A DNA stretch of 64,000 nucleotides, taken from an uncultured Bacilli bacterium. Its GTDB lineage: Bacteria > Bacillota_I > Bacilli_A > RF39 > UBA660. The position numbers and the translations under genes are program-made. The notes beneath the pieces were generated by a model. That model searched no databases, was not told the DNA's origin, and worked only from the letters and a program-made list of their open reading frames with translations. Position 1 is the stretch's first letter, and each line of letters begins with the position of its first letter. Below, in pieces: positions 685 to 21,977 of the stretch. The stretch is from NCBI GenBank assembly GCA_944331895.1, contig CALVIX010000003.1, forward strand, positions 74,953 through 138,952, written 5' to 3'.

Positions 685-1710
685 TTAGTCACCAGCTGCT
701 GAACTATTTGTACTGAATTGTAAATCGAATGAAATGTTTCCACCAGATGCATTGTTTTCACAGTCTACATCCTGTCCTTCAATCCACATATAGATTCTAA
801 CTTTTGTAATACCTTTACTCAATGTAATCAATTGTTGATATTCAGCAAAACCATCATCAGTTTTAATTTTTGGTATTACTGTTTGGAATTTATCATTTGC
901 CTGCGTTGCATTCGCATTTCCTAATGTAATATTAGCATCTGAATTAAACTCAGCTTTGATTCCATCATATGGTACTGGATCGTTTCCAGTTCCTGCAGTA
1001 ATATCATCAATTCCATAAGTGTCACGTGCGTTTGCTACACCAAATGATGTATGTGAATCTGCATTTGGTTCCCAGATCGTCACAGCTGACCCTACACCGT
1101 TATTCAAACCTTGAATATTAGGGATTGTATCATCACTTGTCGTATTTCCTAATACTACGAATGCAACTCTCGTAGCATTTTTAATTCCGGTATCAGCGGC
1201 ATCCTTGAAAGAAACTCCTGAATTCGTCGTTAAATAGATTGGTGCTTCAGATTCTGTACGTAAGAAAATATCGTATGCTACATAAGAACCATTTGCTCCA
1301 TCCGCATCTATTTGTTTCGTTGAACTTAATACCCAGTCTCCAGTATCATTAGAAGTAACTTCTCCTAGATACATATTCATCGTACCACCGGCATCCATAA
1401 CACCTGCACTTGATACTGGTTCTAGCATCGCAGGTAATTGGTTCTTTGCTGCTGTATAATTTCCCTTTGCTCCCGTGATATCTGTCGTCGTCAAAATAGA
1501 TTTCCAATTTTGACCATCAGCAGAAATTTGTAGACCACTTTTTGCAGCTACGTTAACATCAATTGGATTTACTGAAACAGTCTTATTTGCTGTAAACCAT
1601 GCGTAAGTTGCAGTACCTAAGAAAATTCCAGTTCCAACGAGTAGTAACAATGACAAAAGTAATCTTCTCTGTTTTCTTTGATTTCTCTTCTTTTTCTTAT
1701 TACTATTCAT
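685..1710 (-). CDS. Secreted TasA-like protein, family A (SipW-cognate-type signal; EGQDVDC C-terminal motif)
   Basis: 341-aa ORF with RBS GGGAGAG upstream. Basic n-region KKKKRNQRKQRR, one hydrophobic span, then GTATYAWFTANKTV. Paralogue of 12881-13870 (shared NATRxAF, IWEPNxDxHT, PYDGxxAE, ITKVRIYMWxEGQDVDCE). Confidence 0.6.
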   Translation of the reverse strand: MNSNKKKKRNQRKQRRLLLSLLLLVGTGIFLGTATYAWFTANKTVSVNPIDVNVAAKSGLQISADGQNWKSILTTTDITGAKGNYTAAKNQLPAMLEPVSSAGVMDAGGTMNMYLGEVTSNDTGDWVLSSTKQIDADGANGSYVAYDIFLRTESEAPIYLTTNSGVSFKDAADTGIKNATRVAFVVLGNTTSDDTIPNIQGLNNGVGSAVTIWEPNADSHTSFGVANARDTYGIDDITAGTGNDPVPYDGIKAEFNSDANITLGNANATQANDKFQTVIPKIKTDDGFAEYQQLITLSKGITKVRIYMWIEGQDVDCENNASGGNISFDLQFSTNSSAAGD

Positions 1711-1797
1711 AAATCAATCTCTCCCTATTCTTAACATCTTAATTTTATCAAAATTTTTTTCATAAAGCAACATGTTTTTGACACTAATTGACAAATT

Positions 1798-2364
1798 TTA
1801 CACTTGCGTTGCAGTAATTGTTACTTCTACATGATCTATTAAATCTTGATACACTTCTTCATTATAATTAGTTGGAAAATTTACGATCAATTGATAGTGA
1901 TTCGTCATCTCTTTTTCTTTTTCAAACCTCTGCTTTGGAGTTGAAAATTTAAAGAAATACATTCCGTCTTCATCCTGTATAATTTCTTTATTCTGAAAAT
2001 CATTGACCGTGGCATCATTCAGATAGATTTTATAATCGACAGGAATATTCGTCGTAGTTTCCAATTCTAATGTATATTCCAAATCAACTTCGCTGACATT
2101 ATCATCTTTAAAATTAGAAACATCTATATTGAAAATATAATCTTTTCCATCCGGTTTTACATCGAACATTTTTAATGTTTGCGATTCCGTCGTCGGATGA
2201 ATGATGTAAAATGCGATATCTCCGACAGCTGTTCCCGAACCATCTGTAAAAAATCTCGCAAATACAACCCTCATTCCGAGTAATAATAATAGAATACCAA
2301 CGATCGCAATCGTAATCTTTTGAAATTGCCAGAATTTCTTTTTATCAATCATCTTTACCACCAT
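1798..2364 (-). CDS. Membrane-anchored or secreted protein, family B (paralogous to the N-domain of 20558-21487)
   Basis: 188-aa ORF with one N-terminal span followed by VVFARFFTDG. YIFNIDVSNFKDDNVSEVDLEYTLEL aligns with YNIVINLNSFKNNHLKSNSDIDYEVSL of the 309-aa ORF. An alternative start at 2352 (ATG overlapping the sipW stop) is possible. Confidence 0.5.
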   Translation of the reverse strand: MVVKMIDKKKFWQFQKITIAIVGILLLLLGMRVVFARFFTDGSGTAVGDIAFYIIHPTTESQTLKMFDVKPDGKDYIFNIDVSNFKDDNVSEVDLEYTLELETTTNIPVDYKIYLNDATVNDFQNKEIIQDEDGMYFFKFSTPKQRFEKEKEMTNHYQLIVNFPTNYNEEVYQDLIDHVEVTITATQV

Positions 2365-2920
2365 TTTTCATCTGAATACCAGAATAATAAATAGCAAAGT
2401 CGGCATTGTCTGGCAGATGCTTCTTCCCAGTATACGCAAAAGCAATAGAGAACAAAAACAAAGTCACGCAGATCATAGCGATAATTTTAGGTGTCGATAG
2501 CACCTTAAACCATACGCCAAACTGAGGCAATATCTTGACCACTTTTCCCACTACTTGTTCTTTTAAAATAACTTTATCTTGTTCCATATTTGCATCACCT
2601 TTAGTGACATATCCCGTTTGGGTTACCTGCTGTACACGGTGCGTAATGAGAGTATCTCCATCCTTGTAAGTAATAATATCTCCTACTTTAATATTTTCAT
2701 CTGATAATTTTACGATAATTAAATCATTCGTCGTAATCGCAGGAGCCATACTGTTACTTCCAATCTGAAAAAACGTATAGGAAAAGAAATTAACATACTT
2801 ATTGGAAAGTACTTTTATACTTACGAAAGAGTATAGACAAAGAACAAGCACGATTCCTAATATGACAAATAGGATATTGCTGATTACTTTCATAGATCTA
2901 TACACGATCTCACTCTTCAT
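2345..2920 (-). CDS. sipW: Signal peptidase I, SipW (ER/archaeal) type, catalytic residues present
   Basis: 191 aa with N- and C-terminal membrane spans. Ser box IGSNSMAPAI, GDIITY, His box ITHRV, TKGDANMEQD; this matches the SGSMEP / THR / GDNN layout of B. subtilis SipW. Confidence 0.8.
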   Translation of the reverse strand: MKSEIVYRSMKVISNILFVILGIVLVLCLYSFVSIKVLSNKYVNFFSYTFFQIGSNSMAPAITTNDLIIVKLSDENIKVGDIITYKDGDTLITHRVQQVTQTGYVTKGDANMEQDKVILKEQVVGKVVKILPQFGVWFKVLSTPKIIAMICVTLFLFSIAFAYTGKKHLPDNADFAIYYSGIQMKNGGKDD

Positions 2921-2939
2921 GCGATCACCACCTTTGATT

Positions 2940-3515
2940 TTATTCTTTTATATACTGTTCAAACTGAATCGTTATTGGAATCAAAAACTGACTATCAGGA
3001 TCTTGTCCTAGCTCAGAATCTGTCTCGTTATATTGATCATCCCACACCCAATGGAACGTCACCTGAATCGTATCTGTTTTACCAGCTTCGATATCATCTA
3101 ATGTTACAACGCGACGATATACGCCATTTTCTTCTATTAACTGTGTACCGTTGACACCAACAACTTCATCTACTGTAATCTGATCATATTCTTGCTTTTC
3201 TAAGTCCAACTTCAATTGATATTGAAACGAAACCTCCGTATCCTTAGGATCGATTTCGATCAAAAACTTTCCTGTTACACCAGGCGCGAACTTCGAAACA
3301 GGATTTCCATTTCGATCGACATAGGAAATCTCATCGATGTAAAATGTTCGATCTGTCTGATTTAAATCGCTATCATTTACGGTAATATGCCATTTCGCAA
3401 CTGTGAGTTCACTTTCGTCATCGATACTAGTTTCAAATAATCCAAAGCTTTTCGTTATTTGAAATATCGTAAGACAACAAAAGAGAATACTTATTACTAT
3501 GAGTATTTTCTTCAT
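2940..3515 (-). CDS. Secreted TasA/camelysin-like protein, family C
   Basis: 191 aa with signal-like N-terminus ending ITKSFGLFETS. VAKWHITVNDSDL, APGVTGKFLIEIDPKDTEVSFQYQL and VTFHWVWDD are all mirrored in the plus-strand ORF 15144-15734. Confidence 0.55.
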   Translation of the reverse strand: MKKILIVISILFCCLTIFQITKSFGLFETSIDDESELTVAKWHITVNDSDLNQTDRTFYIDEISYVDRNGNPVSKFAPGVTGKFLIEIDPKDTEVSFQYQLKLDLEKQEYDQITVDEVVGVNGTQLIEENGVYRRVVTLDDIEAGKTDTIQVTFHWVWDDQYNETDSELGQDPDSQFLIPITIQFEQYIKE

Positions 3516-4042
3516 TCATCCTCGTCTTCGATTGGCGCCTTAATCTCGATAATCACACGGTATAGTTCATATAAGAACAATAGTAAAGTTGGTAAAATAA
3601 CTAAAATGAGAAATCCAAAACGAGATTCTAATATAGATAGGATTTGTCCAAGTTCTGGATAAACCTTCGCAGATTCCGTTCTTCCAATTAAACTAGAACT
3701 TGAAATGTCATGATTATCGTTAATCGTAAATGTACGTTCATCTTCATCTACTGGCAACACCTCTGTTACAGTTCCATAATGAATACTTGGTATTCCATTC
3801 GTTACCTCGTAGAAGAAAATCTCGTCGTTTTCTTTTACTTTTTCCATTTCTCCTTGGCGAAATAATACTAAATCACCATCGTTATATTTATCAGAATCAT
3901 CATCGATGATAATAAAACTATAGCCTAACATCTCTGTTACTTTATAATCATTGTAGCAAAGTAAACATGATGTGACTAAAATAATCACTGCCAAATAACA
4001 TACTCCGATGACTCCTAATATTCCTTTTAAAACTAATTTCAT
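3512..4042 (-). CDS. SipW-like pseudo-peptidase (nucleophile Ser replaced)
   Basis: 176 aa with the same N-TM / beta core / C-TM layout as SipW. NDGDLVLF aligns with NTGSLILV of SipW, which puts IIIDDDSDKY where GSMxP should be (Ser to Asp). Acidic C-terminal tail. Confidence 0.5.
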   Translation of the reverse strand: MKLVLKGILGVIGVCYLAVIILVTSCLLCYNDYKVTEMLGYSFIIIDDDSDKYNDGDLVLFRQGEMEKVKENDEIFFYEVTNGIPSIHYGTVTEVLPVDEDERTFTINDNHDISSSSLIGRTESAKVYPELGQILSILESRFGFLILVILPTLLLFLYELYRVIIEIKAPIEDEDE

Positions 4043-4086
4043 ATCCCTACTCCTTCATGTTTCTATTTTATCACAAAAACAATTCA

Positions 4087-5634
4087 TTACCTAGCGATTT
4101 CTTTTTTTTCCATGATTTTCTGAACTTTCTTTACTCTTATTAAATCATCGATAGATATATGAAGTTTTTGTAGTTGATAATATATAATTATCTTTTTTAA
4201 ATCTGTCTTACACTGTTTTAACTGTTCTGTTGCTAACATATCTTCTTTTAGATCAACGCCTAGTAATCGATAGTTAGAAATCAACATAGAAGCGACATTT
4301 CCTTCTTCCGATATCGTCAAATTATTGATCATTGTATTGTTCGGATTTAAAACGAATTGATAAAGATTTTGATGTTCTTCATCTACTTTTTCATATGTCG
4401 TTTGTGGATCTTTTTCAAAACACATATCAGCTAAGAATGCATAATATTGACTCACGAGCAATAATGATTTAAAAATCGTTGAATTGTCTTTCATGTGCTC
4501 TTTGACAGTATAGTGAAACATCACCTGATCCACTTCGTGATATTGTGCTTCTATCTCGCTGATCACCTGATTGATTTCTGGTGTGATTTTGTCTACTTTT
4601 GTCTTAGAAAAAGTCCCCCGAGATTTTTTATTTAATTTTGTTAACTTCTTTTCTAATTCTTTGATCTTCTTAAAATGTTTTTGCAATACATTACGGTCTA
4701 AATCTTCTTTGTATAACGATCTGATTTTGGCAATCAACGCTTCATATTTCTGATAATTTTCGTATTCTTCTAACGAGTGTAATAATTTGAAAGCAACATT
4801 TTCTAACTCGGATTCTTTTCCTTCAAAAGAGTTTCCAAAATACGTATTTATTAAATTTTTAATTTTTTCTTCCGTATAATCATCTACATTATAAGCTCCT
4901 GACACAAAACAATATAATAGATGTTCCTTCTTCCCAAGCTTTTCCATCTCTAACTTATGACATAGATAACTATAGTCATCGATCAAACTTTTTTCTCCAT
5001 GTTGAAAACGCGATAACATCTCTGCATTCGTACGAGTGATGTATTGTTCGAATTTCTTCTTGTGTTTTAAATATAGATGGCGAAGATTCAATTCAATTTC
5101 TAAAATTAAATATGGATCTTTCCAATAGAGTTCTTCAAATACTTTTTCTAACGTTCCACTATTGATATAGTTTTGATAGGAAAAGAAGGATTCCATATAT
5201 TGGTGTGAGAACTTCGTATAGTTAAAATCGGATGCCTGCAAAGATATCCCTACTTTGTTAAATACAGATATCACTCTTTTTAAAACGTGATTATTATCGT
5301 TTAAACGATTCATCTTATAGCGTGAAAGTTGATACATATTTTTATCTAGTCTTAATTTTTCATACGCCGTTGCTAAATTATTCGTATAGGATAATGCTTT
5401 AGAAAGTTGCATCAGCGCATCATGGTATTCTTGAAAAGACTGTGGCTGTAAAGATAAATATGGTTTTTCACGGTTCACAAGTTCCGTATAAATCATATTT
5501 ACCTTTTCTTGATAAGTTGCAATTTCACGCTCTATTTCATTTAAAAACTTCGTTTGGTTTTTTAAATTGTTCGTCGGTAAACTTTGAAATACTTCACGGC
5601 TTAATGCGATTTCTTTTTCAATTCTTTCCTTCAT
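4087..5634 (-). CDS. Cytoplasmic K/E/L-rich helical protein, unknown function
   Basis: 515-aa ORF with no hydrophobic span and no motif I recognise. Its start is overlapped by the small ORF 5618-5746. Confidence 0.6.
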   Translation of the reverse strand: MKERIEKEIALSREVFQSLPTNNLKNQTKFLNEIEREIATYQEKVNMIYTELVNREKPYLSLQPQSFQEYHDALMQLSKALSYTNNLATAYEKLRLDKNMYQLSRYKMNRLNDNNHVLKRVISVFNKVGISLQASDFNYTKFSHQYMESFFSYQNYINSGTLEKVFEELYWKDPYLILEIELNLRHLYLKHKKKFEQYITRTNAEMLSRFQHGEKSLIDDYSYLCHKLEMEKLGKKEHLLYCFVSGAYNVDDYTEEKIKNLINTYFGNSFEGKESELENVAFKLLHSLEEYENYQKYEALIAKIRSLYKEDLDRNVLQKHFKKIKELEKKLTKLNKKSRGTFSKTKVDKITPEINQVISEIEAQYHEVDQVMFHYTVKEHMKDNSTIFKSLLLVSQYYAFLADMCFEKDPQTTYEKVDEEHQNLYQFVLNPNNTMINNLTISEEGNVASMLISNYRLLGVDLKEDMLATEQLKQCKTDLKKIIIYYQLQKLHISIDDLIRVKKVQKIMEKKEIAR

Positions 5635-5746
5635 TTTCTACACTCTTTTCCACTTCTTTTTTCTTCGTTTCTAATTCTTTTAAATAATCATTTATCACTT
5701 GATAACACTCGATCAATTCATCTGTATTTACTGTTTCTAAATCCAT
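5618..5746 (-). CDS. Small acidic coiled-coil ORF (42 aa), not in the ORF track
   Basis: AGGAGG (5753-5758) sits 6 nt upstream of ATG at 5746. Translation: MDLETVNTDELIECYQVINDYLKELETKKKEVEKSVENEGKN. The RBS abuts the stop codon of the giant ORF (5757-5759), and the ORF's stop overlaps the 515-aa ORF start by 17 nt, suggesting translational coupling. Confidence 0.4.
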   Translation of the reverse strand: MDLETVNTDELIECYQVINDYLKELETKKKEVEKSVENEGKN

Positions 5747-5756
5747 ATGGTTCCTC

Positions 5757-8700
5757 CTATTTTATTATAACATATTCTGTACAATCTCCTATCAAAGTAT
5801 CTCCGTCGTATAATCGAAATACAAACCGATATGTACCACTTTTTAAATTTGATTTTAAATATAAATTCTTATCGCTTTCCGCAGCCGGCATTTCTGAAAG
5901 TAAATATTCATTTTCATTTTTCTGCTGCATATTGTTTGAAACATAATCTAACAAGTTGACTTGAGAGTATGTCGTATCGTAAATCTCATCGTAATTTCTT
6001 CTAAACAAGCTAACGCGTATATTTGGATTAGATAAATTAGAAGAGTACTTTACGTGGAAAATAAGGGCGTTATTTCCTAGTGTCGTATACCCTGTTTCTT
6101 TATCTACGATCGTCTGTCTCTCATCTAAAGAAACGTCTAATCCATAACGACTATTGATAATCTCAAATGGAATTGTAATCTGATCCGATGAATTCGTTCC
6201 AAAATAGATCCCATCTGGCGAACCAAACGATTCGATTTTCATCGTGTAATTTCCACTAGCCAAGTTAACGTTATTCGTATGAATTTTAATACGACTCAAT
6301 ACATTGGCAACCTTATCTGCAAGTGGAATACGAATACTTCCATCCATACGTGGATAATAAGTAACTCCATCCAACTCGTAAGTAAGTCCAAGTAAGCTAC
6401 TATTGTTCAATTGATTTTGATTCGCATCAAAGATCGTAATGTAAACACCAAGACGCTTATCTAGATATGTCGTATCTACAACAGTTGCTCCACTTGCCGT
6501 CGATTGAGTGAAGTTCGTCGTCAATGTCAAATCGCTATCTTCACCGATATAAATTGGATTTTTACTTAAAGTTCCTTCGACATCGATCACTGCGTCTCGA
6601 TTATCATATAAGTTATAAGTTAGGTTCGCATGTTGAATTCCGAGAACGCTAATCAAAGTTTGATCTTGCGCGTTTCGAAGTTCCATGAGTAAACTCTTTC
6701 CAATCTGATCCCCTTCGATCGTGGTATCTCCAAAATCGACGATAAAGATAAATTCTTCTTCGATAATTCCCATCTCTTCGTCATAGTAAAGTTCCATATT
6801 TTTTTGTTCGTTATAATTATTGTCTGCACTCGTCGATCCCATGGCAATAAAATCACTTAAATAATAAGAACTTTCTCCATATAACGCATGTTCTGCTGTT
6901 GCATTTCGATAATCTTCTTCATCGATGACATGATAATAGTATGTTGGCATCGTCGCAAAGTCGATCATCGTTATCTTTGTTCCAACTGGCAATACGTAAC
7001 TAGATACAAGTGCATGCTGATATCCCGTTTGATAATATGGTTTATCTGTTTCCATATAAAGAGAATAATAAGCACTCAAGGATGATTTCGTTGTAATGTT
7101 CGTCTGTGTCGATGCGAATAAATCGTATTTTTCCCCTGTCGTCATCGCACCTTCATATTCGTTATTTGCATATAATGCAGAATTGATCGTTACGTTGATA
7201 TTGACACGAGTTACCTCGTTATTTAATTCATCGATCGGTGTTATCTCCAAAAGGGAAATGACAACGGTACCAATTTCTCTTGCCTGTGTTAAATTTTTAG
7301 AATGGTACAAATAGAAGATGAAACTAGGTACAGCACTTGAATTCTCCGATTGATAATTGGTTGTCCCAACGACGGAAGATCCTTCTTCGGTTCTAAAGTT
7401 TGTAGATCCTTTCGTAACGAAACCTGTATTAGATGCCTCCATCGAAAGCCCCATGATGTCATCTGCTTTTCCATCTCGATTGACTCTTTCAATCGTATCT
7501 GGATCGACAAGTTCAAACCCTTCTTCGAGATTCTGATAGTTAAATCCTAAAATCTCAAACTGCGTATTCGCTCCACCAGATGTTACTAAAGGTAACTCGT
7601 ACGTACCTAACGTCGCATACTTAGATGCCGTTAAAGTAAGTTCGTACGTTTCAACGGTCTCTCCAATTACCCACATATAATAACTAGCATCGCTCGGTGT
7701 AGGTTCAATATACTTCACTTCTACTGTTCCTTCGACATCTTCATTTTCATAGTTACTATAAAAACCATCTTTCGTAATATCGTGATTTGTATTGTGTAAT
7801 CCTAAGACGTAGCTTCCTGATGTGAATGCATAGAACTCTCCAGAAGCAACAGTATCCCCTGCATCGTATTTTTGATGGTAAAATGCAGTTAATACGCGAT
7901 CGTTACGATCTAATTGATACATTCCAAAGAACGTCATTCCACTCACTTCTCCATAGCTCGTGACGGCTTCGTTTGTCGCGATATTCATGTTTTTGCCTTC
8001 TAACATATAAACGCGATTATCGACATTTTTCGTGACACTTCCGCCTTCAGTAATCGTAACACTTGCCTCAGTCTCATTCTCTCCATCGATCTTTAAACTA
8101 TTAAATTTTTGTAATAAGTTCGTTCCGTTATCTAAAAATAGAGTACTATTATTTGCTAACTTTAATTCCTTGACACGACTAATACTAAATTTTGTCGTCG
8201 AAAATTCATTCGTACGGTCTGTCGTTCCTTCTAATTTAATTGCAGAATTTTTAAGAGTTACAATATCTGCTCTTTGAATAGAAATATTTTCCTGGTACTG
8301 ATCAAAAGTACCATAATTTGAAATATCGATATAACTATAACCTTCTGTACTAGATGCGTTTCCAGAACCAAAGATAGAACCTTTGATATAAAATTGATCA
8401 TATCCATCTCCATCGATTGTAATTTGGATTCCTTCTGTTACACTGATAAAAGAATAGTCGTAGTTTGGATCTCCTTCGGCATTGGCTTCTCCTCCTCCAA
8501 AGACAGTTCCATCGATCATGATATCGCTCTTCGTTAAATTTTCATTCGATCCGATATTTAATTCTACCGTTCCATAAAGTACGGCTGTATTGGCTCCCCC
8601 ATATACATTTCCATGGATCGCAGCTCCAGCTATATTGACGTGACTGACAGAACGATTGACTTCCTTCGTTCCCGTATTTGCGGCGTTTCCTCCACCAAAA

Positions 8701-12863: not shown

Positions 12864-12880
12864 ATGATCCCTCCTTTTCT

Positions 12881-14595: not shown

Positions 14596-14625
14596 ATTTT
14601 ATCATATCTTGTCGCATTTTGTAAA
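14596..14625 (-). promoter_or_regulatory. Sigma-A-like promoter for the 236-aa ORF and downstream cassette
   Basis: On the minus strand: TTTACA, 18 nt, TGaTAAAAT (extended -10). Lies immediately downstream of the terminator at 14661-14689. Confidence 0.4.
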
Positions 14626-14660: not shown

Positions 14661-14689
14661 CAAAAAAAAGAAAGATCTAGTCTTTCTTT
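14661..14689 (-). terminator. Rho-independent terminator of the 95-aa ORF
   Basis: Minus strand AAAGAAAGA-ctaga-TCTTTCTTT followed by TTTTT. The stop codon lies in the loop. Confidence 0.55.
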
Positions 14690-14964
14690 CTCTGTAAGCC
14701 AAAATCAAAATTCGGATCGTCCTTTAATACGTGTATCGACATCGTCTTAAATAGATCATCTAAATCCAGTGTATCATCACTGACGTTATCTTTTTTCTCT
14801 ACCTGTGGAGTCGTTTCATCCAATTCGACAATTTCAATTTCTTCCTCTGGAATTTCCCTTCTATTTTGAGTCTTCCCCTTCTTATTCTGTCTCATCAAAA
14901 GTGCAAAGATCGCAATGAGAGCAATAACAAGTATCAATCCAGCAATCAACATAATCCACAACAT
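14677..14964 (-). CDS. Small single-span membrane protein with acidic tail (95 aa)
   Basis: MLWIMLIAGLILVIALIAIFALLM then K/R, then a D/E-rich tail. RBS GGAGGGG. Has its own promoter and terminator. Confidence 0.55.
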   Translation of the reverse strand: MLWIMLIAGLILVIALIAIFALLMRQNKKGKTQNRREIPEEEIEIVELDETTPQVEKKDNVSDDTLDLDDLFKTMSIHVLKDDPNFDFGLQRKKD

Positions 14965-15143: not shown

Positions 15144-15734
15144 TTGATTAAAGTGAAAAAATGGAAATTATTGATCGCTATTTGTGCTTTGATCTTTTGC
15201 GTCACACAAATACAACAAACTTATGCGAAATATCTAGATACGAAAGAAGGCGATACAGATTTTACCATTGCTCAATGGAAAATCCTCGTCAACGATCAAG
15301 ATATTACAGAAGCTGCAACAATGTCTTCTCTAGTTAACCCAGTATATCTCGAAAACGAGCATGTAAAAGACGGAGTCATCGCTCCTGGACAAAATGGATA
15401 TTTTGATCTGACGATCGATTCAAGCAAGACGGAAGTATCCTTTTCCTATGCGATTCAAATCGCGACATCCGATCAAAGTTCTGTCTCTGATCTTGCAATT
15501 ACTGGATATCAAGTGAACGATAGTGGTCTCGTATCTGTCGATCAAGCAGTCAATACAATTCAAAATAATATATATTACAATGATCCGACCAAAGAAAATA
15601 AAATTCGCGTATACTTCCAGTGGAAAGATGGTGTAGGAGAAACGATGGATAACGCTGCCGATACCAACGCATCGTTAAGTGGAGAGAGCGCTAAACTGAA
15701 AGTTAATATTACGTTTACACAAATTGCAAATTAA
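15144..15734 (+). CDS. Secreted TasA/camelysin-like protein, family C (paralogue of 2940-3515); one of only two plus-strand genes called
   Basis: 196 aa with a TTG start in the track. Signal-like N-terminus ending IQQTYAKYLDT. IAQWKILVNDQDI, APGQNGYFDLTIDSSKTEVSFSYAI, VYFQWKDG. Confidence 0.55.
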   Translation: MIKVKKWKLLIAICALIFCVTQIQQTYAKYLDTKEGDTDFTIAQWKILVNDQDITEAATMSSLVNPVYLENEHVKDGVIAPGQNGYFDLTIDSSKTEVSFSYAIQIATSDQSSVSDLAITGYQVNDSGLVSVDQAVNTIQNNIYYNDPTKENKIRVYFQWKDGVGETMDNAADTNASLSGESAKLKVNITFTQIAN

Positions 15735-15762
15735 AACCACAGTTAATTCTGTGGTCTTTTTT
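15733..15762. terminator. Bidirectional terminator between convergent ORFs
   Basis: ACCACAG-ttaatt-CTGTGGT is followed by CTTTTTT on plus. The reverse orientation is followed by TTTTAATTT. It overlaps the last codons of the 204-aa ORF. Confidence 0.6.
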
Positions 15763-16345
15763 GACTTGCTGTCAATTTAACGATAATTTCAATTTGTTTT
15801 TCTCCTGGATAGTCTTGCTTATAACTATAGCTCTTTTTTCCCCAATAAGTATCTAATTCATCATTTCCGGACTCATACGGCCAATCTAACCCTACTCGAA
15901 AGCTCGCTTTCGCACCGATATCAATTTCCGATTGATCGACTCCCAGAGTTAATTTAAAAGGATAGTTATTCTGTAACATTTCAATTAACTCATCACTTGT
16001 ATAATCCGCATCCGTATATACTTCATCCATAATCTTGATCGATTTTACTTCGTATGTAATATAAGCCAACATCTCTCCAGAATTGCTAATTTCGATAAAT
16101 TCCTCGAAAGATTCCATTCCCGGATAGATCGAATCAATCTCGAAAGTAACATCTTCCTCTAGATCATTTCCATCTTGTTCAAATGTTACCTTCCATGATT
16201 TTACCCCAGTAGTGATACTGTTGGATACTTTATTGCTATAGATAAACCATGCAAAAGAATTTGCCATAAAAGCAAAAATTAGAAAAAATAATGTACTTCT
16301 ACGTATTCTTCGTTTCGTCTTTTTCATGAGTGTTTTCTTCTTCAT
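15743..16345 (-). CDS. Secreted TasA/camelysin-like protein with SipW-cognate-type signal
   Basis: MKKKTLMKKTKRRIRR, one span, then ANSFAWFIYSNKV. IYPGMESFEEFIEISNSGEMLAYITYEV resembles the TasA LKPGD...NNGSL segment. Start uncertain: GTG 16357, ATG 16345 or ATG 16327. Confidence 0.55.
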   Translation of the reverse strand: MKKKTLMKKTKRRIRRSTLFFLIFAFMANSFAWFIYSNKVSNSITTGVKSWKVTFEQDGNDLEEDVTFEIDSIYPGMESFEEFIEISNSGEMLAYITYEVKSIKIMDEVYTDADYTSDELIEMLQNNYPFKLTLGVDQSEIDIGAKASFRVGLDWPYESGNDELDTYWGKKSYSYKQDYPGEKQIEIIVKLTASQKRPQN

Positions 16346-16907
16346 CGGACAACTCACTTTCTTTCTCTTTGATATAATCGAGTATTTCTAAGAAAATTAA
16401 AATTGCAATCGGAACAAACACAAGAAAATATAATCCGTAGGAATTATTTAAAATATGACTTAACCAACTTAATACTTGCGGTCTATAAACGACAACTCCA
16501 TACATTTGATCTTCTCGAATTTCCGGATCAGGTGTATTATTTGCTGTTCCTTGCGTCGTATAATAATAAGTTCCATTCTCTTCTCTTACTTTCTTTACTC
16601 TATGCGTAATGACCCTATCTTTATAATCTCCTGTTTTGCCAAGATAAGTTAAATCATCTCCCACCTGAATTTCATCTGGTTTTTTTTCTTTGATGATAAT
16701 CACATCGTAAATATCGTATTCTGGCATCATACTACCTGTTACAACTGTAAACATGCGATAACTACCAATACTGACTTGATTGTTGAATAATCTTTGAATT
16801 CCAATAACTAATACGATCAAAATCACAAAAATCCAAATCATCACTTTTATAAACCCAAACAGAAACTTAAGAAAAGGATTATTCAGTATTTTTTTCATCA
16901 TCTTCAT
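16299..16907 (-). CDS. sipW: Signal peptidase I, SipW type (Ser and His boxes present; GDNN box reads GTANN)
   Basis: 202 aa with VVTGSMMPEYDIYDVIIIK, GDDLTY, ITHRV, TTQGTANNTPD, a C-terminal span and an acidic tail. Its start overlaps the stop of the upstream 379-aa ORF. Confidence 0.7.
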   Translation of the reverse strand: MKMMKKILNNPFLKFLFGFIKVMIWIFVILIVLVIGIQRLFNNQVSIGSYRMFTVVTGSMMPEYDIYDVIIIKEKKPDEIQVGDDLTYLGKTGDYKDRVITHRVKKVREENGTYYYTTQGTANNTPDPEIREDQMYGVVVYRPQVLSWLSHILNNSYGLYFLVFVPIAILIFLEILDYIKEKESELSDEEENTHEKDETKNT

Positions 16908-18018
16908 TTTTTTTCACCTTCAAATGATCTGTCTTATCGATGTATTCACTCATCGCTTTTTTGTAGATCTTTTCAATTTCACTCGTATCTACAACCTTTT
17001 TATATTTTACTTTTACATATTCTTTTCCAATCAACTTCATCACTTCATCTAAAGATAGTTGATCACTGATATTCATAAGTTGATTGATAGACTGACTTAC
17101 GACACGAGCCTGTAAATTTTCTTTTTCTTCCTCTGTTACCTCTTTTTTATGTAAGGTATCCATGATCAAGCAATTTAACAAAAATGATTCATCCATCATA
17201 TCTTTCAACTTACCTTGATCTTTATAATCTTTATTCGAATGATCCTTTTTTACACTAGGTTCCATATGTGTTTGAAGATAATTCCATAAAGTTAAGGCAT
17301 ATTGGAAATTAACATTTTTCAAAATCAAATTTGTCTTTTTAATCGGAGATGTTACCATAGCTACGTGTAATTTAGCAATACTACGGTATACTTCTGAAGA
17401 ACATAGATCACGAATCTGTTCTTCTACTTTCGTAATTCTTTCAGCAAGTGTTCCTTTATCTCCCTTTTTTTGATCGCTTTCAATCTTACCCGTCAGATGA
17501 ACAGAGATCTCCACCCTTTCATTGTCGATCTTTCCCTTTCCCTGATATTTCAATTCTTTGAGCGAAGAAAAAGATTGCTCGACAAGTTCTTCTTGTTTTT
17601 TTCTCTCGATATACATCTTCATATGATTGATCAACGTATAGATAAAACGATTTTCATAGGTATTAAATGTCTCTTCTTTATTGATATTTAATATTTTAGA
17701 TGGTTTTACTTCCCCAGTCTTAGGATCGATTTCTTGAATCAAATTCGTATTCTTTGACAAATGTTTAATACTATCCACAGTAATTCGACGTGCCAACTCA
17801 ATTTTTACGATCTCTTCTTCGTTGATGATAAAACGATTAGGACTGCGCAAAATATTATCTAAATATCGGATTGTCTCTTCCATTTTTACGAGCCATTCGT
17901 CGTCGTACTCGGATTGATCCATTTTATCTTTCACCTGTAACTCGGAACTTAACGACTGTTTGAATTTCTCTTTCGTCCGATCCGTCGTTTTTCCGTAAAG
18001 TTCTATAATTCCATCCAT
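16879..18018 (-). CDS. Cytoplasmic partner of the McrB-like GTPase (McrC position; no nuclease motif seen)
   Basis: 379 aa starting 13 nt after the GTPase stop. The TYENRFIYTLINHM segment and overall N-terminal region recall the McrC/DUF2357 N-domain (from memory, weak). The C-terminal half is K/E-rich and helical. Confidence 0.45.
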   Translation of the reverse strand: MDGIIELYGKTTDRTKEKFKQSLSSELQVKDKMDQSEYDDEWLVKMEETIRYLDNILRSPNRFIINEEEIVKIELARRITVDSIKHLSKNTNLIQEIDPKTGEVKPSKILNINKEETFNTYENRFIYTLINHMKMYIERKKQEELVEQSFSSLKELKYQGKGKIDNERVEISVHLTGKIESDQKKGDKGTLAERITKVEEQIRDLCSSEVYRSIAKLHVAMVTSPIKKTNLILKNVNFQYALTLWNYLQTHMEPSVKKDHSNKDYKDQGKLKDMMDESFLLNCLIMDTLHKKEVTEEEKENLQARVVSQSINQLMNISDQLSLDEVMKLIGKEYVKVKYKKVVDTSEIEKIYKKAMSEYIDKTDHLKVKKNEDDEKNTE

Positions 18019-18031
18019 ACTCTCACCTACA

Positions 18032-19555
18032 CTATGTTAATTTTTTCAATCTTAATAAGTACTCTTCACACTCTTTCATTTTCCCTTGACCAAACGTCTG
18101 GTCTAAAAATTCGATAAACCCGTCGATTTCATCGCGAATGTAAGATACGTTTAACTGTTCAAACTTACGAAGGATTTTACGTGCCACAAAGTAATCTACT
18201 CCACTGACTTCATCTCCACCACAAGCAATATAAACCGGAACAAATTTTCTCATATGTGCGACAATACGGTTACCAAACGCAATACGGAAATGTTTGATTA
18301 CATAGTTATCCATCTCTTCTATTTTATTTAAAATGTCCGCACTCATTTCGTTTTGATTCATAGCTTCCGCAAAGATACGCTCTAAATAAGAATAATTGAT
18401 ATCCTGTGATGGGGTATCGATCGGTTCGAACACCTCACCTTTGTCATTGATGTCAATTGGCATCGCACGGTCATATACTTTATCTGTTACCATGAAAGTA
18501 GAGTCGTCATTATTGATCGTTCCGATATACCAAGTATTTGGACTAATCTTTAATTTCCCGTCGATCAATTTTTTAGGATCGTTCGGCCAACTACTAGAAA
18601 CTAGTTCGACAATCCATTCATCTTTGTTTGGCATTTCCAAAATAGATAACATCTCTGCAAAGTAATACTCTACTCTGGCGATGTTCATCTCATCTAGAAT
18701 CACGGTATATACATCGTCCGTATATCCAGCTTCATAGATCGTCTTTAACACTTCTGTCTCATTAAACTTCTTCGTAAATTCGTTAAAGTATCCAAATAAT
18801 TCAGTACGATCACGCCATGATGGCTGAACAGATGCGATACAAGAATCATGCTTTAAAAATTTTCCCCAAGCATATGCTAGAGATGTTTTTCCGGTACCAG
18901 AAATACCTTGTAAAATAATGAGCTTCGTAGACGCTAAAGCAGCGATAAAAATACGAATCATCTCTGACTTATAATAAAGATGTAATTGACTTGCTGCAAA
19001 ATTTCGAAACAACTCCACTAGTTCTTCCAAAGTAAACGTATTGTTGTAATTCTTTTTTGTATAGCTTTGATATGCGAGATCCACTTCGTTTAACTTAGCA
19101 AATCTAATTCCATCTGCATTTACATTCTCCTCTTCTGGATCAGTTGGTTCTTCTACTTCACTCTCATTCGGTTTCAACCCTAAATGCGATACCTTCATTG
19201 CCAAAATATCTTCTTTTTCTTTGACTAAACTAGATACCTCGTCATTTAATTTTGCAACTTCCTCCAAAAGCTCTTCTTGTTCTACTAAGGTCTTGCGAAA
19301 GCGAATATACTTTCGAACCAAGAAAACGATCAAGAATACAAATGCCACTACAATCAAGATTAAAAAGACAATGACAAGAGCGACAAAGATCCATTCCGGA
19401 CCATTAAAATCTTCTTTGTAGAAATTTAAAATACGTAGATAAGCTTTGAAATCGAACATGTGCTTAATTCCCTCGATCGCAGCGAGCGCTATTTGTAATA
19501 AACTACCAAAAAACTGGCTTAAAAATTCATATAAAAATCGAAATACTGTATCCAT
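18032..19555 (-). CDS. Membrane-tethered McrB-family AAA+ GTPase
   Basis: TM span at aa 55-80, coiled-coil at aa ~88-120, Walker A GISGTGKTS (nt 18884-18907), VQPSWRDRTELFGYF, VILDEMNIARVEYYFAEMLSILE, IGTINNDDSTFMVTDKVYDRAMPI (NxxD at the McrB NTAD position). Confidence 0.75.
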   Translation of the reverse strand: MDTVFRFLYEFLSQFFGSLLQIALAAIEGIKHMFDFKAYLRILNFYKEDFNGPEWIFVALVIVFLILIVVAFVFLIVFLVRKYIRFRKTLVEQEELLEEVAKLNDEVSSLVKEKEDILAMKVSHLGLKPNESEVEEPTDPEEENVNADGIRFAKLNEVDLAYQSYTKKNYNNTFTLEELVELFRNFAASQLHLYYKSEMIRIFIAALASTKLIILQGISGTGKTSLAYAWGKFLKHDSCIASVQPSWRDRTELFGYFNEFTKKFNETEVLKTIYEAGYTDDVYTVILDEMNIARVEYYFAEMLSILEMPNKDEWIVELVSSSWPNDPKKLIDGKLKISPNTWYIGTINNDDSTFMVTDKVYDRAMPIDINDKGEVFEPIDTPSQDINYSYLERIFAEAMNQNEMSADILNKIEEMDNYVIKHFRIAFGNRIVAHMRKFVPVYIACGGDEVSGVDYFVARKILRKFEQLNVSYIRDEIDGFIEFLDQTFGQGKMKECEEYLLRLKKLT

Positions 19556-19565
19556 TCATTCACCT

Positions 19566-20546
19566 CTATTTTGGAATATATAACACTTGAAAATAATCTT
19601 TTAAAGTATCATATAATTTTTCATCATCTGTAATAATATATGTAAATACACGAAGTAAAACATAAGCTTCTTCGTTCCATACAAAGTGGTCATCTAGACA
19701 AATAGCAATATGAAATCCTTCCCTCGTCAAGCGATAGACTTCCTCTTTGTTCTCTAGATACTCTGTATAAGAAATTTTAAATGCTAGTTTTTCTTTGGTA
19801 ATATCATTATCGATTATATTTAAGAGTCTCTTTTGTTTCTTCGGTTTATCCTTTAATGCTAGAATATAATCCACTAAATAATATTTTTGATATATTCCCT
19901 TGATAATATCTTGTAAAATTTTAACACCGACGTAAGAATATAATATAAATAACTTTTGTTCTTCGATATCTTTATTGTGGAATACCTTTTGAATCGCATA
20001 CTCACTATATAACTTTGAAAATTTTAAATTATGTTCTAATTCACAATCAAAGATTCGATCGTTATTTACCTTAATATAGTTAATGCTAAAGTTTTTATCT
20101 TTAAATTTATCTATAAATTCTTGTTTTGCAAGCAAATCATCTTTTAGCTGATTATAAAACTTCACCTCGAACTCGTCGTCTTGAAGTCCCAATTCATTCT
20201 CTCGAAACTTTGCTACTTTCGCGATAATAGCGCGTACAGAATCACACTCACAAACGCCATCAAAATACAAAATATATTGAAACATCGAAAACATGTACTT
20301 TGCTTTTTTCCGATATTTTGAATCATCTTTGACATTTTCAAGTGACTTTTTTAAATAGTAGACCAAGTTCTTTTCAAATCTTTGATCTACCATTGGATAC
20401 ATATGATAATATCTCGTATTGATATATGCATTGATCAAATCATCATAGATATCCTGATCGAAATAATGTCCCAGAATCATCTGCAAATATTTCTTGATTG
20501 CCTTTTGCGAAAACGAAACATATTCTTTTACAATATTACAGCTCAC
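19566..20546 (-). CDS. Cytoplasmic protein, unknown function (326 aa)
   Basis: Long ORF tightly packed in the operon (10-11 nt gaps on both sides) with no hydrophobic span. Confidence 0.55.
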   Translation of the reverse strand: MSCNIVKEYVSFSQKAIKKYLQMILGHYFDQDIYDDLINAYINTRYYHMYPMVDQRFEKNLVYYLKKSLENVKDDSKYRKKAKYMFSMFQYILYFDGVCECDSVRAIIAKVAKFRENELGLQDDEFEVKFYNQLKDDLLAKQEFIDKFKDKNFSINYIKVNNDRIFDCELEHNLKFSKLYSEYAIQKVFHNKDIEEQKLFILYSYVGVKILQDIIKGIYQKYYLVDYILALKDKPKKQKRLLNIIDNDITKEKLAFKISYTEYLENKEEVYRLTREGFHIAICLDDHFVWNEEAYVLLRVFTYIITDDEKLYDTLKDYFQVLYIPK

Positions 20547-20557
20547 AATACCAACTC

Positions 20558-21487
20558 CTAGTAATTATATTCGACCGTTACAATTCCACTACCACTTCCA
20601 TCGTTCGAATAATCTTTTGTTACATCCTTTTTATAAAATCTCATCACACTACTACTCGATGCGGGCATATCAAACGTAAATTGATTGATATAATCATACC
20701 CATTTATCTTTTCTGTTTGAATGTTATATCCCCGTAAAAATGTCGTACTATTATTATCTACATATACGATATTTGGATCGAAGGATAATGTGATGCTTGC
20801 AGAAACACATTTATTCTTCTCCTCTTGCGTCAACGCATTATATTGCGCGATCGACAATTGATCGCCTACTGCATGCGTTCCAAATGCTTCCTGGACTGTA
20901 TAATATAATAGTGTATTTGTCACCTTCACCTCAAGATAAACATCGTTTTCATGATCGATAATCTCATGACTTAATCCATACGTACCTACCACTAATTTAA
21001 ACTGTGCCGACAATTTTTTATGATAAGGACTTACAGATTCTGCGACAATTTCCGCAACGACACTATCTCCATCCTGAAACGTCTGTGTCGGAGTAATCGT
21101 AACGATAAATTGATCATTATTACTGTCGTGATAGATCGTTCCTTTTTCTTTTGTCGTATTACAGATTACTGTTTCAGAACAATTGAGAGAAACCTCATAA
21201 TCGATGTCACTATTACTCTTCAAATGATTATTTTTAAAACTATTCAAGTTGATGACAATATTATATGGATCCACTCCGTTCCAATAATCAAGTGAATAAC
21301 TCGCACCATCTTGCGTTAACTTGTCACTTTCAAAATAAAAGTTCTGCGTACGAAAATAGAAATTCAACACTTGATGATAAACAAACCGTCCCAACGTAAA
21401 TCCGACTGTCATAAATGCAAAAATTGCAACTACTAATACAACTCCACGCTGAAACTTATTAAGACGTCGTACTCTAATTTTTGGCAT
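20558..21487 (-). CDS. Membrane-anchored or secreted protein, family B (309 aa)
   Basis: Basic n-region RVRRLNKFQR, one span, then FTLGRFVYHQ. The N-domain is paralogous to 1798-2364. Confidence 0.55.
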   Translation of the reverse strand: MPKIRVRRLNKFQRGVVLVVAIFAFMTVGFTLGRFVYHQVLNFYFRTQNFYFESDKLTQDGASYSLDYWNGVDPYNIVINLNSFKNNHLKSNSDIDYEVSLNCSETVICNTTKEKGTIYHDSNNDQFIVTITPTQTFQDGDSVVAEIVAESVSPYHKKLSAQFKLVVGTYGLSHEIIDHENDVYLEVKVTNTLLYYTVQEAFGTHAVGDQLSIAQYNALTQEEKNKCVSASITLSFDPNIVYVDNNSTTFLRGYNIQTEKINGYDYINQFTFDMPASSSSVMRFYKKDVTKDYSNDGSGSGIVTVEYNY

Positions 21488-21977
21488 AACTTAACGACTT
21501 TCTATATTTTCGTACCAGTATAATAAAAGCGATCATAATTGGTAACATCACAATTAGAAAATATCCTAATTGACTTGTCAAAACCCGATACGGATACCCT
21601 AACATCGGAATTTGTCGCACATCTTTTATATTTCCTATCAAATATTCGCTCGACAAAAATAAGCCATCTTGAATCACGTAAGTATACTCTTTCTCGTTTG
21701 TCTTCATGACGTCTTCTACTTTTGTTACGTCGATCTTTCTTTTTCCGTTTTTCGTATTGTAATAGATAATTTCATCCCCTTTTTGGATCGATGATATATC
21801 CTTCTTACTCACGATTAAATTACCTGCTTTCAACTCTTCCGAATTTTCAGTTATCCCAACGATCATCGTATCCCCAATGACGCTATCCGAAAATTGATTA
21901 CAGGTAAACAAGAAAAAAGTTGCTACTAGTACTAATACTGTGTAACATATGATTCCAATATACTTTGCGATTCTCAT
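21474..21977 (-). CDS. SipW-like pseudo-peptidase (Ser and His boxes both lost)
   Basis: 167 aa with N-TM and C-TM as in SipW. KAGNLIVSKK aligns with NTGSLILVK, which puts ITENSEEL where GSMEPEF should be. VTKVEDV replaces THR. Confidence 0.5.
   Translation of the reverse strand: MRIAKYIGIICYTVLVLVATFFLFTCNQFSDSVIGDTMIVGITENSEELKAGNLIVSKKDISSIQKGDEIIYYNTKNGKRKIDVTKVEDVMKTNEKEYTYVIQDGLFLSSEYLIGNIKDVRQIPMLGYPYRVLTSQLGYFLIVMLPIMIAFIILVRKYRKSLSYAKN

Follow-up and report, generated by a model that had tools for sequence, protein, structure and literature searches.

A SipW-type signal peptidase locus of uncultured gut Bacilli with a membrane-anchored McrBC-like GTPase is predicted to assemble a surface fibre

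A 64,000-nucleotide stretch of DNA from an uncultured Bacilli bacterium of the gut (assembly GCA_944331895.1, contig CALVIX010000003.1; the whole stretch is referred to here as the window) carries, at positions 685-21977, a 21-kb locus of 19 genes in which two predicted active and two catalytically dead SipW/Sec11-type signal peptidases are encoded together with a set of secreted proteins that share one signal peptide and cleavage motif, and with a membrane-anchored McrB-family GTPase and its McrC-like partner. The locus is a large, elaborate and expanded member of the class named CoCoPALM (Bell et al., eLife 2024; PMC11090510). We predict, with moderate confidence, that its product is a peptidase-dependent surface fibre, or fibre-based coat, whose assembly is coupled to the membrane-tethered, McrBC-derived GTPase. 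A preliminary description made from the sequence had proposed a fibre or sheath assembly system of the SipW/TasA type at this place, which the comparative, profile and structural analyses below uphold in part.

Results

Gene order is conserved across related genomes

Genes are named by a letter, in the order of transcription of the minus strand from A167 to R341, followed by the length of the product in amino acids (Table 1). The listing of open reading frames (ORFs) gives 18 of at least 90 residues and one of 42, and of these 19 H196 alone lies on the plus strand. Overlapping stops and starts were confirmed at 2345-2364, 3512-3515, 5618-5634 (the 42-residue ORF and M515), 13857-13879, 16299-16357 (or 16345), 16879-16907 and 21474-21487. 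The co-orientation of 18 of 19 ORFs and the overlaps noted in the preliminary description are real.

A pattern scan of species-representative genomes with the alignment of K332 and R341 relatives (the K/R family) found 429 stretches encoding such proteins, and 79 loci were retrieved. Presence of each gene was counted by tblastn of the 18 longer ORFs against these 79 loci, the counts being limited by the 10-kb flanks. K and R have matches in 79/79 loci, H and J in 74/79, and D, E, F and G in 50-51 of the 79. The titles of the metagenome-assembled genomes (MAGs) concerned name uncultured Tenericutes, Mycoplasmatota or Bacilli, Clostridium sp. CAG:451, CAG:628, CAG:914 and CAG:609, and Firmicutes bacterium CAG:884 and CAG:321; going by these names we infer that they are RF39-like Bacilli. 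Gene order is kept across dozens of gut Bacilli MAGs, and some genomes carry the complete content with its halves swapped (H to R, then A to G). The neighbourhood survey that had been proposed as a check thus finds the genes syntenic, not scattered, in related genomes and, with this synteny extending over dozens of species, the comparison identifies the locus as one conserved multi-gene unit and no chance neighbourhood.

In the closest genome (L001, positions 1-20912 against 685-23822 of the window), RpoC is 99.3% identical in protein and 94.1% in DNA, while the DNA of the locus is just 79.1% identical and its proteins range from 69% (A167) to 95% (D507); divergence is much faster in the locus than in its rpoC flank. 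The same synteny, with K332 identities of 45-65%, was also seen in loci from MAGs titled Muribaculaceae, Bacteroidaceae, Paludibacteraceae, Sphaerochaetaceae, Oribacterium or Lachnospiraceae (L009, L010, L013, L017, L019, L024, L035, L043 and others), for which mis-binning of contigs seems likelier than true presence in these foreign phyla.

Six full-length relatives of D507 with 39-51% identity were inspected in their contexts (L080, L082, L083, L084, L085 and L086). Three of these (L082, L083 and L085) are compact loci with a J-like gene, between one and three K/R-like genes, a single SipW-type peptidase or a pair of them, D and an E that is longer, and their K/R-like proteins have cleavage sites of the form T[FY]A|WFSMN or |WFSIR. 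The conserved core therefore appears, on sequence comparison, to consist of J-like, K/R-like, peptidase, D and E genes; H/O/G/Q/B, L2368, C326, M515 and the 42-residue protein were seen as a set only in the clade of the window. In the preliminary description the giant repeat protein L2368, the GTPase and cytoplasmic helical proteins had been recruited to a fibre system. The constant set of J-like, K/R-like, peptidase, McrB-like and McrC-like genes in distant relatives indicates that this direction is probably wrong: the McrB-like and McrC-like genes belong to the distant core, and L2368, the small TasA-like proteins, C326 and M515 are lineage-specific.

The other three contexts, L080 (967-14806), L084 (3831-18028) and L086 (4635-8267), hold pairs of membrane-anchored McrB-like and McrC-like genes among other neighbours, which are a 2750-residue leucine-rich repeat (LRR) lipoprotein in one case and a second D paralogue, a transglutaminase-core protein and a 1579-residue protein in another. 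In L086 a C326-like gene (E 1.6e-10) lies directly upstream of the D-E pair, beside phage-like genes. An origin of the locus in a mobile element was considered and rejected, because no K/R relatives occur on plasmids, only the AAA+ part of D507 is found there, and no D relatives were found in viral contigs.

Two signal peptidases keep the catalytic pair and two have lost it

Four proteins of the locus are of the signal-peptidase type, each with a membrane helix at the N-terminus and another at the C-terminus. F202 and P191 score above the cut-off of 51.85 bits for NCBIfam TIGR02228 (archaeal/endoplasmic reticulum-type signal peptidase I), and the catalytic serine and histidine are kept in 51/51 F/P-family sequences in the alignment of related loci; on these two grounds both enzymes are predicted to be active. 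In the equivalent alignment of the A/N family the histidine is missing from 57/57 sequences, the serine is mostly lost and the GxAN box is deleted. The absence of the histidine from every member marks A167 and N176 as pseudo-enzymes. The two families are homologous by profile comparison (hhalign probability 98%), and F and P are paralogues of one another (BLASTP E 2e-12), as are A and N (Table 1). The earlier count of two active and two degenerate peptidases is thus borne out by the TIGR02228 scores and by the catalytic residues alike.

The secreted proteins share a basic signal peptide and a cleavage motif

Eight proteins (B309, G204, H196, K332, L2368, O191, Q188 and R341) begin with a basic N-terminal tail and one hydrophobic segment, followed by a site of the form small-aromatic-small|x-aromatic. 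In the n-region O191 has 2 Lys and Arg residues; the other eight of the nine proteins that are secreted or anchored have 4-10. The motif [STAGNV][FYW][AG]x[FYW] occurs within the first 70 residues of 50/50 G, 67/69 H and 72/72 K orthologues, and likewise in 18/18 R, 11/12 O and 32/47 B orthologues, while none of the 26 other ORFs of the window has it (expectation ~0.018 per N-terminus) and neither does any of 75 orthologues of J236. A conserved cleavage site, [S/T]-[F/Y]-[A/G]|x-aromatic, behind a very basic tail is in this way common to seven protein families. All basic n-regions and aromatic motifs quoted in the preliminary description are present in the sequence and the motif is conserved in orthologues.

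That description had further equated these N-termini with the SipW-cognate signal of TasA. The mature chain of Bacillus subtilis TasA begins at A28 after GGGTWA (the sequence used was checked as 100% identical to PDB 8aur_A), and the cleavage register is the same, TWA|AF in TasA and TYA|WF or TYA|KY in the locus. R341 lies above the NCBIfam model of this signal (TIGR04088; 20.9 bits, cut-off 19), but the model recognises only 5/42 K/R members (E<=0.01) and 0/40 H/O members. The low recovery makes the signals of the locus a divergent version of the SipW-cognate signal. Judging from the residues after the site, there seem to be two classes of mature N-termini: a WF(T)xN type, which occurs in K, R and G and is resembled by AWKTAN of L2368, and a type with Lys, Leu or Arg followed by an aromatic residue in H, O, Q and B.

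D507 and E379 form a membrane-anchored McrB/McrC-like module

The domain order of D507 is a transmembrane helix at residues 60-78, a basic patch, a heptad-like helical stretch, an acidic linker and an AAA+ domain. Two weak matches to FtsL models cover residues 56-131 (E 0.0036 and 0.041). A profile of 28 orthologues retrieves Escherichia coli McrB as the sole match in the PDB (E 8e-4), aligned from the Walker A motif through the McrB signature. GISGTGKTS (Walker A), ILDEMN (Walker B) and INNDDS are invariant in 28/28 sequences; the last aligns with MNTADR of McrB and can be read as NxD or as NxxD. From these motifs D507 is predicted to be an active nucleoside triphosphatase (NTPase). It is the most conserved protein of the locus, with a mean column identity of 83% against 65% for E379 and 48-55% for the other families, and is 70-95% identical across species. 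At least 8000 relatives were found among metagenome proteins, where the search filled up with close relatives and reached no distant ones; a search of representatives at 50% identity gave 754 at E<=1e-30. The best annotated relative is the candidate defence protein PDC-M26A of PADLOC (E 3.6e-35); the other scanned proteins of the locus have no match in PADLOC.

Directly downstream, E379 carries the N-terminal domain of McrC (DUF2357), which was found in 28/28 orthologues; no nuclease family, PD-(D/E)xK included, was found in any of the 28, and a profile search of the PDB with E379 gave no match. By sequence, the transmembrane helix and helical stretch of D507 stand in the place of a DNA-binding domain. 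The membrane anchor in this position, together with the lack of a nuclease in E379, argues that the pair is not a restriction enzyme. The earlier assignment of a membrane-tethered McrB-type GTPase is in agreement with these data.

The K/R family has an invariant mature N-terminus and no fold match

K332 and R341 are 41.5% identical (BLASTP E 1.5e-75). In YAWFTxN, the residues A, W, F and N do not vary across 42 K/R sequences whose overall identity is ~40%. In the AlphaFold2 model of R341 (predicted local distance difference test (pLDDT) 87.2, predicted template-modelling score 0.82) residues 32-52, with pLDDT below 50, are the sole low-confidence part; they run from the last residues of the signal peptide across the predicted cleavage site to about residue 16 of the mature chain, and hold the invariant A, W, F and N. 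An N-terminus that is invariant beyond the needs of cleavage, in a model uncertain at that place only, is what one would expect if the strand took up its fold only within a neighbouring subunit. The model has no significant fold match in the PDB (best Foldseek E 0.14) or in BFVD. R341 has 3021 relatives among the proteins of the database; of the 120 best listed not one carries a Pfam domain, and the few listed relatives with a name are called 'hypothetical protein' or bear a generic signal-peptide prediction.

J236 has the basic tail and the membrane helix and is devoid of the cleavage motif. Over 34 C-terminal columns it aligns with K/R (hhalign E 1.3e-5), and is thus probably an uncleaved, membrane-anchored relative of that family; a profile search of the PDB with J found no relative. 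The aligned part contains an acidic motif with a single invariant cysteine in the last hairpin (EGxDxDC), which reads EGQDVDCE at residues 306-313 of K332 and 311-318 of R341 and EGDDPDC at 205-211 of J236. This motif could be a metal-binding or a disulfide site.

Likeness to TasA is structural and weak

H196 was compared with known structures through its AlphaFold2 model. The top Foldseek match in the PDB is the TasA fibre, 8aur_A (E 1e-4, probability 1.0), with a template-modelling score (TM-score) of just 0.33-0.37; FimG, the pilin domain of PapG, the bundling pilin AbpA (7ueg, E 3.4e-3) and the cannula-like tube 9bab follow at TM-scores of 0.3-0.4. The best matches of the predicted model are thus subunits of donor-strand filaments, and we count this for the fibre.

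The same proteins show no sequence homology to TasA. Pfam Peptidase_M73 (PF12389) has no match in any ORF of the locus or in any of 40 H/O members; searched against the PDB, the H/O and K/R profiles do not retrieve TasA; in direct comparison by hhalign the H/O and K/R profiles align with the signal peptide of TasA only (E 0.08) or not at all; and mature TasA scores no better than shuffled sequences against six family hidden Markov models (HMMs), 300 of 3000 shuffles scoring as high with H/O. A likeness of C-terminal strands noticed by eye, GNSIKLQFSFEATQ in TasA and GESAKLKVNITFTQ in H196, was dropped, since HMM scoring against 3000 shuffles did not support it. The profile and structure searches that the preliminary description had proposed therefore give a divided answer: the SipW/Sec11 models match, Peptidase_M73 does not, and of the proteins called TasA-like none belongs to the TasA family by sequence, H196 has a weakly TasA-like fold and R341 has no fold match.

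The paralogy among these proteins that had been used to divide the locus into two cassettes is likewise sustained for some pairs and not for others. BLASTP links A with N, F with P, K with R and H with O (the last at E 5e-12). G204 joins H and O by profile comparison only (hhalign 92% over 174 columns), and matches K/R at 95% over no more than the N-terminal 41 columns. This combination of a K/R-type N-terminus with an H/O-type body would suit a role as adaptor between the two kinds of subunit, which we offer as speculation. The start codon of G204 is likely the ATG at 16345. The proposed pairing of B309 with Q188 as a 'family B' was not accepted, for BLASTP finds nothing between them and hhalign gives only 61%. 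The profile links of B309 are weak (Q 61%, G 52%), and profile and family searches found it no relative in Pfam or the PDB.

H196 is inverted in every inspected locus that contains it, convergent with G and followed by a terminator-like hairpin of its own (15736-15755). Conserved inversion together with this terminator suggests separate control of its expression.

Remaining genes and flanking signals

The giant protein L2368 consists in part of tandem units that fit a beta-solenoid, as had been proposed; no Pfam family lies above threshold and a PDB profile search found no relative. C326 is likely a partner of D and E. The 42-residue ORF is kept in position and sequence in many loci (74% identity in L001, 70% in L005, 64% in L012, and others); this conservation makes it a real gene, and it accounts for the count of 19 ORFs and for the overlap at 5618-5634 in the preliminary description.

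On the 3' side of the rpoC stop lie a hairpin with a T8 run (~22125-22097) and then a weaker hairpin (~22050-22030), in keeping with the two rpoC terminators described before; the promoter described next to them is a match to the consensus (Table 1). A second such match, upstream of J236, is a candidate start of a J-to-R operon. Promoter-like and terminator-like sites are no more numerous than in shuffled sequence, so that single sites serve as annotation and not as statistical evidence. Rfam has zero RNA family matches within the locus; elsewhere in the window it identifies an L10 leader, a T-box leader and two tRNAs (31153-31273, 62073-62259 and 59057-59208, all on the minus strand).

Pfam and NCBIfam scans of the ORFs of the locus found no sortase family, no TapA/YqxM, no helix-turn-helix regulator of the kind that would point to SinR/SinI control, and none of a class III (N_methyl) signal, prepilin peptidase, PilB-type ATPase or PilC; an LPXTG-like motif is absent from all 18 longer ORFs. 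The earlier statement that the locus has no SinR/SinI-type regulator, sortase or LPXTG anchor thus stands. Outside the locus the window encodes two proteins with the Pfam N_methyl motif of type IV pilins (N-terminal methylation): one of 1880 residues (44855-50497, minus strand) with many Ig, fn3, BNR, Y_Y_Y and Listeria-Bacteroides repeat domains, and one of 308 residues (34246-35172, minus strand) with BspA-type leucine-rich repeats. Their domain content points to giant pilin-like adhesins of the classical type IV kind encoded by this organism in addition.

A GGDEF protein is encoded in the window ~15 kb from the locus (36681-38738, minus strand), and the compact locus L085 is flanked by one GGDEF and two EAL genes (485-3098 and 11446-14295). 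Such neighbours hint at control by cyclic di-GMP, for which they are no evidence.

Table 1. Genes and sequence signals of the locus, with window coordinates.
Feature	Position	Strand	Evidence
A167, catalytically dead SipW/Sec11-type signal-peptidase paralogue; two transmembrane helices (7-25, 137-155)	21474..21977	-	TIGR02228 E 2.9e-5, under cut-off
B309, secreted protein with SipW-type site (TLG|RFVY; orthologues T[YF]G|RY)	20558..21487	-	Motif in 32/47 orthologues
C326, cytoplasmic protein	19566..20546	-	No transmembrane helix; no Pfam or PDB relative found
D507, membrane-anchored McrB-family AAA+ GTPase	18032..19555	-	Transmembrane helix 60-78; PDB profile matches E. coli McrB alone
E379, McrC N-terminal-domain (DUF2357) protein	16879..18018	-	Pfam DUF2357 E 5.8e-12; directly downstream of D507
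F202, SipW/Sec11-type signal peptidase I, predicted active	16299..16907	-	TIGR02228 77.6 bits
G204, small secreted subunit (SFA|WFIYSN)	15743..16357	-	K/R-type mature N-terminus on H/O-type body
H196, small secreted beta-sandwich subunit	15144..15734	+	AlphaFold2 pLDDT 74.7; single plus-strand gene
I95, small single-pass membrane protein with acidic tail	14677..14964	-	Transmembrane helix 4-22; 21/79 loci, closer relatives only
J236, signal-anchored protein without cleavage motif	13857..14567	-	Basic tail and membrane helix; motif in 0/75 orthologues
K332, secreted family-A protein, core candidate fibre subunit (SYA|WFTSN)	12881..13879	-	In 79/79 loci
L2368, giant secreted protein with SipW-type site (SYG|AWKTAN)	5757..12863	-	At least 17 tandem ~25-residue units ([FY]GGxN); 70/79 loci
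42-residue small cytoplasmic ORF (MDLETVNTDELIECYQVINDYLKELE...), overlapping the start of M515	5618..5746	-	No membrane helix
M515, cytoplasmic protein	4087..5634	-	No transmembrane helix; no Pfam or PDB relative found; 61/79 loci
N176, second dead peptidase paralogue	3512..4042	-	BLASTP against A167 E 3e-18; SipW model E 2.6e-4
O191, H196 paralogue (SFG|LFETS)	2940..3515	-	BLASTP H against O E 5e-12
P191, second SipW/Sec11-type signal peptidase I, predicted active	2345..2920	-	TIGR02228 90.2 bits; Pfam Peptidase_S24 E 1.5e-5
Q188, small secreted protein (VFA|RFFTDG)	1798..2364	-	hhalign H/O against Q 91%, 98 columns; 7/79 loci
R341, second family-A subunit (TYA|WFTAN)	685..1710	-	TIGR04088 above cut-off
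Promoter-like site, TTGCAA-16-TG-TACAAT, extended -10	21995..22022	-	Upstream of A167; consensus match only
Promoter-like site, TTTACA-18-TG-TAAAAT	14596..14625	-	Upstream of J236; consensus match only
Terminator-like hairpin 3' of H196, between convergent H196 and G204	15736..15755	+	Hairpin scan
Terminator-like hairpin, end of locus	667..686	-	Hairpin scan

Discussion

Peptidases, their apparent substrates, a GTPase, helical proteins and repeat proteins recur here in a single syntenic unit, and a fibre or sheath assembly system, as first proposed, is the most economical reading of that combination. In the mechanism that we propose, precursors would insert through Sec with their poly-basic tails remaining in the cytoplasm, F202 and P191 would cleave after [S/T]-[F/Y]-[A/G], and the dead A167 and N176 may hold or present substrates, in the way suggested by SipA/LepA for Streptococcus pyogenes pili. 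The freed N-terminus, WFTxN and an amphipathic stretch, would be the donor strand by which K332 and R341 polymerise onto uncleaved, membrane-anchored J236, a candidate for the base of the polymer at the membrane. Minor or adaptor roles would fall to G, H, O, Q and B, which would decorate the fibre together with L2368 as a giant distal adhesin. At the inner face of the membrane a ring of D507, plugged and stimulated by E379 on the precedent of McrC and McrB, may gate or drive the hand-over of subunits by GTP hydrolysis.

Several observations weigh against this reading. The organism is uncultured and no filament has been seen. The proteins have no sequence homology to TasA, the structural match of H196 is weak at its TM-score and generic beta-sandwiches score close to it, and K/R is without any fold match, so that donor-strand polymerisation of K/R is pure analogy. 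The SipW-cognate model passes over most K/R and all H/O members. D-E pairs stand without peptidases or K/R genes in three of the six distant contexts. To our knowledge, TasA-type and chaperone-usher fibres need no NTPase, which leaves a motor role without explanation, and the McrB family is otherwise known to us from restriction and conflict systems, the closest annotated relative of D507 being itself a candidate defence protein.

The alternative that survives best is a non-filamentous surface layer, sheath or spore-associated coat made of K/R, H/O and related proteins, with L2368 as an adhesin. The preliminary description itself allowed 'fibre or sheath', K/R proteins are abundant, with their 3021 relatives, and have a compact beta-rich fold without match, TasA of B. 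subtilis is spore-associated and named 'Spore coat-associated protein N' in the PDB, and the order RF39, if the MAGs are indeed RF39-like, is predicted to be walled and possibly spore-forming (PMC10868615). An invariant mature N-terminus and many minor paralogues with distinct N-termini, however, fit end-to-end contacts better than a lattice, and domain scans found neither sporulation genes nor S-layer (SLH) domains in the locus. A coat differs from a fibre solely in the geometry of the product and the biochemical steps overlap; we regard it as unlikely.

A second alternative makes the McrBC-derived pair the effector core of an anti-phage or anti-plasmid system related to CoCoNuTs, with the secreted proteins as surface sensors, decoys or coats that mask receptors. 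In its favour, D507 is of the McrB family and matches PDC-M26A, Bell et al. place CoCoPALM under 'CoCoNuT-like systems', the C-D-E trio of L086 adjoins phage-like genes, and between close relatives the nucleotide identity is 79% in the locus against 94% in rpoC. Yet domain scans detected no nuclease or other effector domain in E379 or the other proteins of the locus, D507 lacks a nucleic-acid-binding N-terminal domain, its 70-95% identity and the stable synteny of the 19-gene set are unlike the patchy, fast turnover of defence islands, no full-length relatives were found on plasmids or in viral contigs, and no scanned protein other than D507 matches PADLOC. A defence function is on these grounds rather improbable.

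A machine for motility or retraction, with the GTPase ring cyclically moving a filament or a 'leg' of L2368 as in the gliding of wall-less relatives, would make use of the high conservation of D507, of the giant repeat protein at the surface and of a host lineage that, going by MAG titles, is related to Mycoplasmatota; we consider it very unlikely, as domain scans of the ORFs of the locus gave no homology to known gliding or twitching components, compact CoCoPALMs are without the giant protein, and there is no evidence of how the cytoplasm could pull on a polymer that is cleaved and extracellular. Chance juxtaposition of an ordinary sipW/tasA-like operon with an unrelated degenerate McrBC pair and hypothetical genes has in its favour that the peptidase and secreted-protein genes form two groups in the window and that D-E pairs occur without them elsewhere (L080, L084), but it can be dismissed as scarcely credible, because dozens of species-level genomes repeat both the gene set and its order, the compact versions (D 39-51% identical) again put D-E between K/R-like genes and SipW-type peptidases, and overlapping stop and start codons link E379 to F202 and F202 to G204.

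The surface fibre that we favour would combine features of several known systems. With the tapA-sipW-tasA operon of B. subtilis and sipW-tasA-calY of Bacillus cereus the locus shares a dedicated SipW-type (Ser/His) peptidase beside its substrates and the small-aromatic-small|x-aromatic context of the cleavage site (GGGTWA|AFND in TasA; TYA|WFTAN and TYA|KYLD in the locus). It differs from them in having no member of Peptidase_M73, no TapA and no SinR/SinI, in its 19 genes against three or four, and in its dead peptidase paralogues, very basic n-regions, main subunit of unmatched fold and cytoplasmic NTPase module. Archaeal donor-strand filaments (AbpA, Sulfolobus threads, cannulae) and chaperone-usher pilins have in common with it export by Sec and cleavage by signal peptidase I; H196 resembles 7ueg, FimG, the PapG pilin domain and 9bab, all weakly, and homology is not established. 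We know of no dedicated NTPase in the archaeal donor-strand and chaperone-usher systems. Type IV pili as well as type II secretion systems follow a similar logic, with a dedicated peptidase, major and minor subunits with a common signal and a cytoplasmic hexameric NTPase; there is no homology, and cleavage in the locus falls after, not before, the hydrophobic segment.

In S. pyogenes, the signal-peptidase-like protein SipA/LepA is essential for pilus polymerisation (PMC4049620). As an inactive signal-peptidase homologue inside a pilus locus it resembles A167 and N176 and sets a precedent for substrate-holding factors; it differs in being a P-type homologue that works with sortases, whereas A167 and N176 are of the Sec11/SipW type and no sortase or LPXTG was found beside them. 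The module of D507 and E379 has the AAA+ GTPase core and the DUF2357 partner of E. coli McrBC, in which the DUF2357 domain of McrC inserts into the McrB hexamer and stimulates it (PMC11090510). E. coli McrBC has a DNA-binding domain and a PD-(D/E)xK nuclease; in their place the locus has a membrane anchor, and no nuclease was found.

The association of these parts is not without precedent and had been named, of which the preliminary description took no account. Bell et al. (PMC11090510) described a large clade in which McrB GTPases carry a fused FtsB-like transmembrane and coiled-coil domain, associated it with 'pilus assembly factors' of the signal-peptidase family, and named it CoCoPALM; they gave it two sentences and deferred its analysis to a later paper. 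A full-text literature search on the name brought up no later paper, and literature searches on SipW, donor strands and RF39 returned nothing on this system. The locus shares with CoCoPALM a McrB-family GTPase, D507, and an adjacent McrC homologue (E379, DUF2357) together with signal-peptidase-family genes, an association that recurs in L082, L083 and L085. The N-terminal transmembrane helix of D507 is followed by a helical segment that may be FtsB/FtsL-like, going by the weak FtsL-model matches. Further traits of the class are the NxD, rather than NxxD, form of the McrB signature, where INNDDS of D507 allows either reading, and a coiled coil fused to the McrC homologue. New relative to Bell et al. 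are the full inventory of parts, the identification of the peptidases as SipW/Sec11-type together with their dead paralogues, the signal shared by the substrates, and the distinction of a compact core (J, K/R, peptidase, D, E) from clade-specific additions (H/O/G/Q/B, L2368, C, M and the 42-residue ORF).

With K/R relatives at 429 places in species-representative genomes, the system is widespread; it sits in uncultured gut bacteria with reduced genomes and takes up ~1.7% of a genome of 1.26 Mb (L012). If the predicted fibre is real, an AAA+ GTPase known only from DNA restriction would have been re-used at the membrane, a motor would have been added to the supposedly energy-free pathway of SipW/TasA-type fibres, and a new fold of structural subunit would be defined. 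For experiments on the deferred question of what CoCoPALM does, there are handles in the cleavage motif, in the dead peptidases and in a minimal core of five genes. A bolder and more doubtful proposal, which we put forward tentatively, is that CoCoPALM as a whole is a previously unrecognised NTP-driven machinery for surface filaments, in which a membrane-tethered hexameric GTPase taken over from DNA restriction, with its McrC-like plug, would drive or gate from the cytoplasmic side the polymerisation of Sec-exported, SipW-cleaved K/R subunits of a new fold onto membrane-anchored J. If this were true, CoCoPALM would stand beside type IV pili, conjugative pili and flagella or archaella as an independent solution to energy-coupled filament assembly, and its machinery would be common in the reduced-genome Bacilli of the gut.

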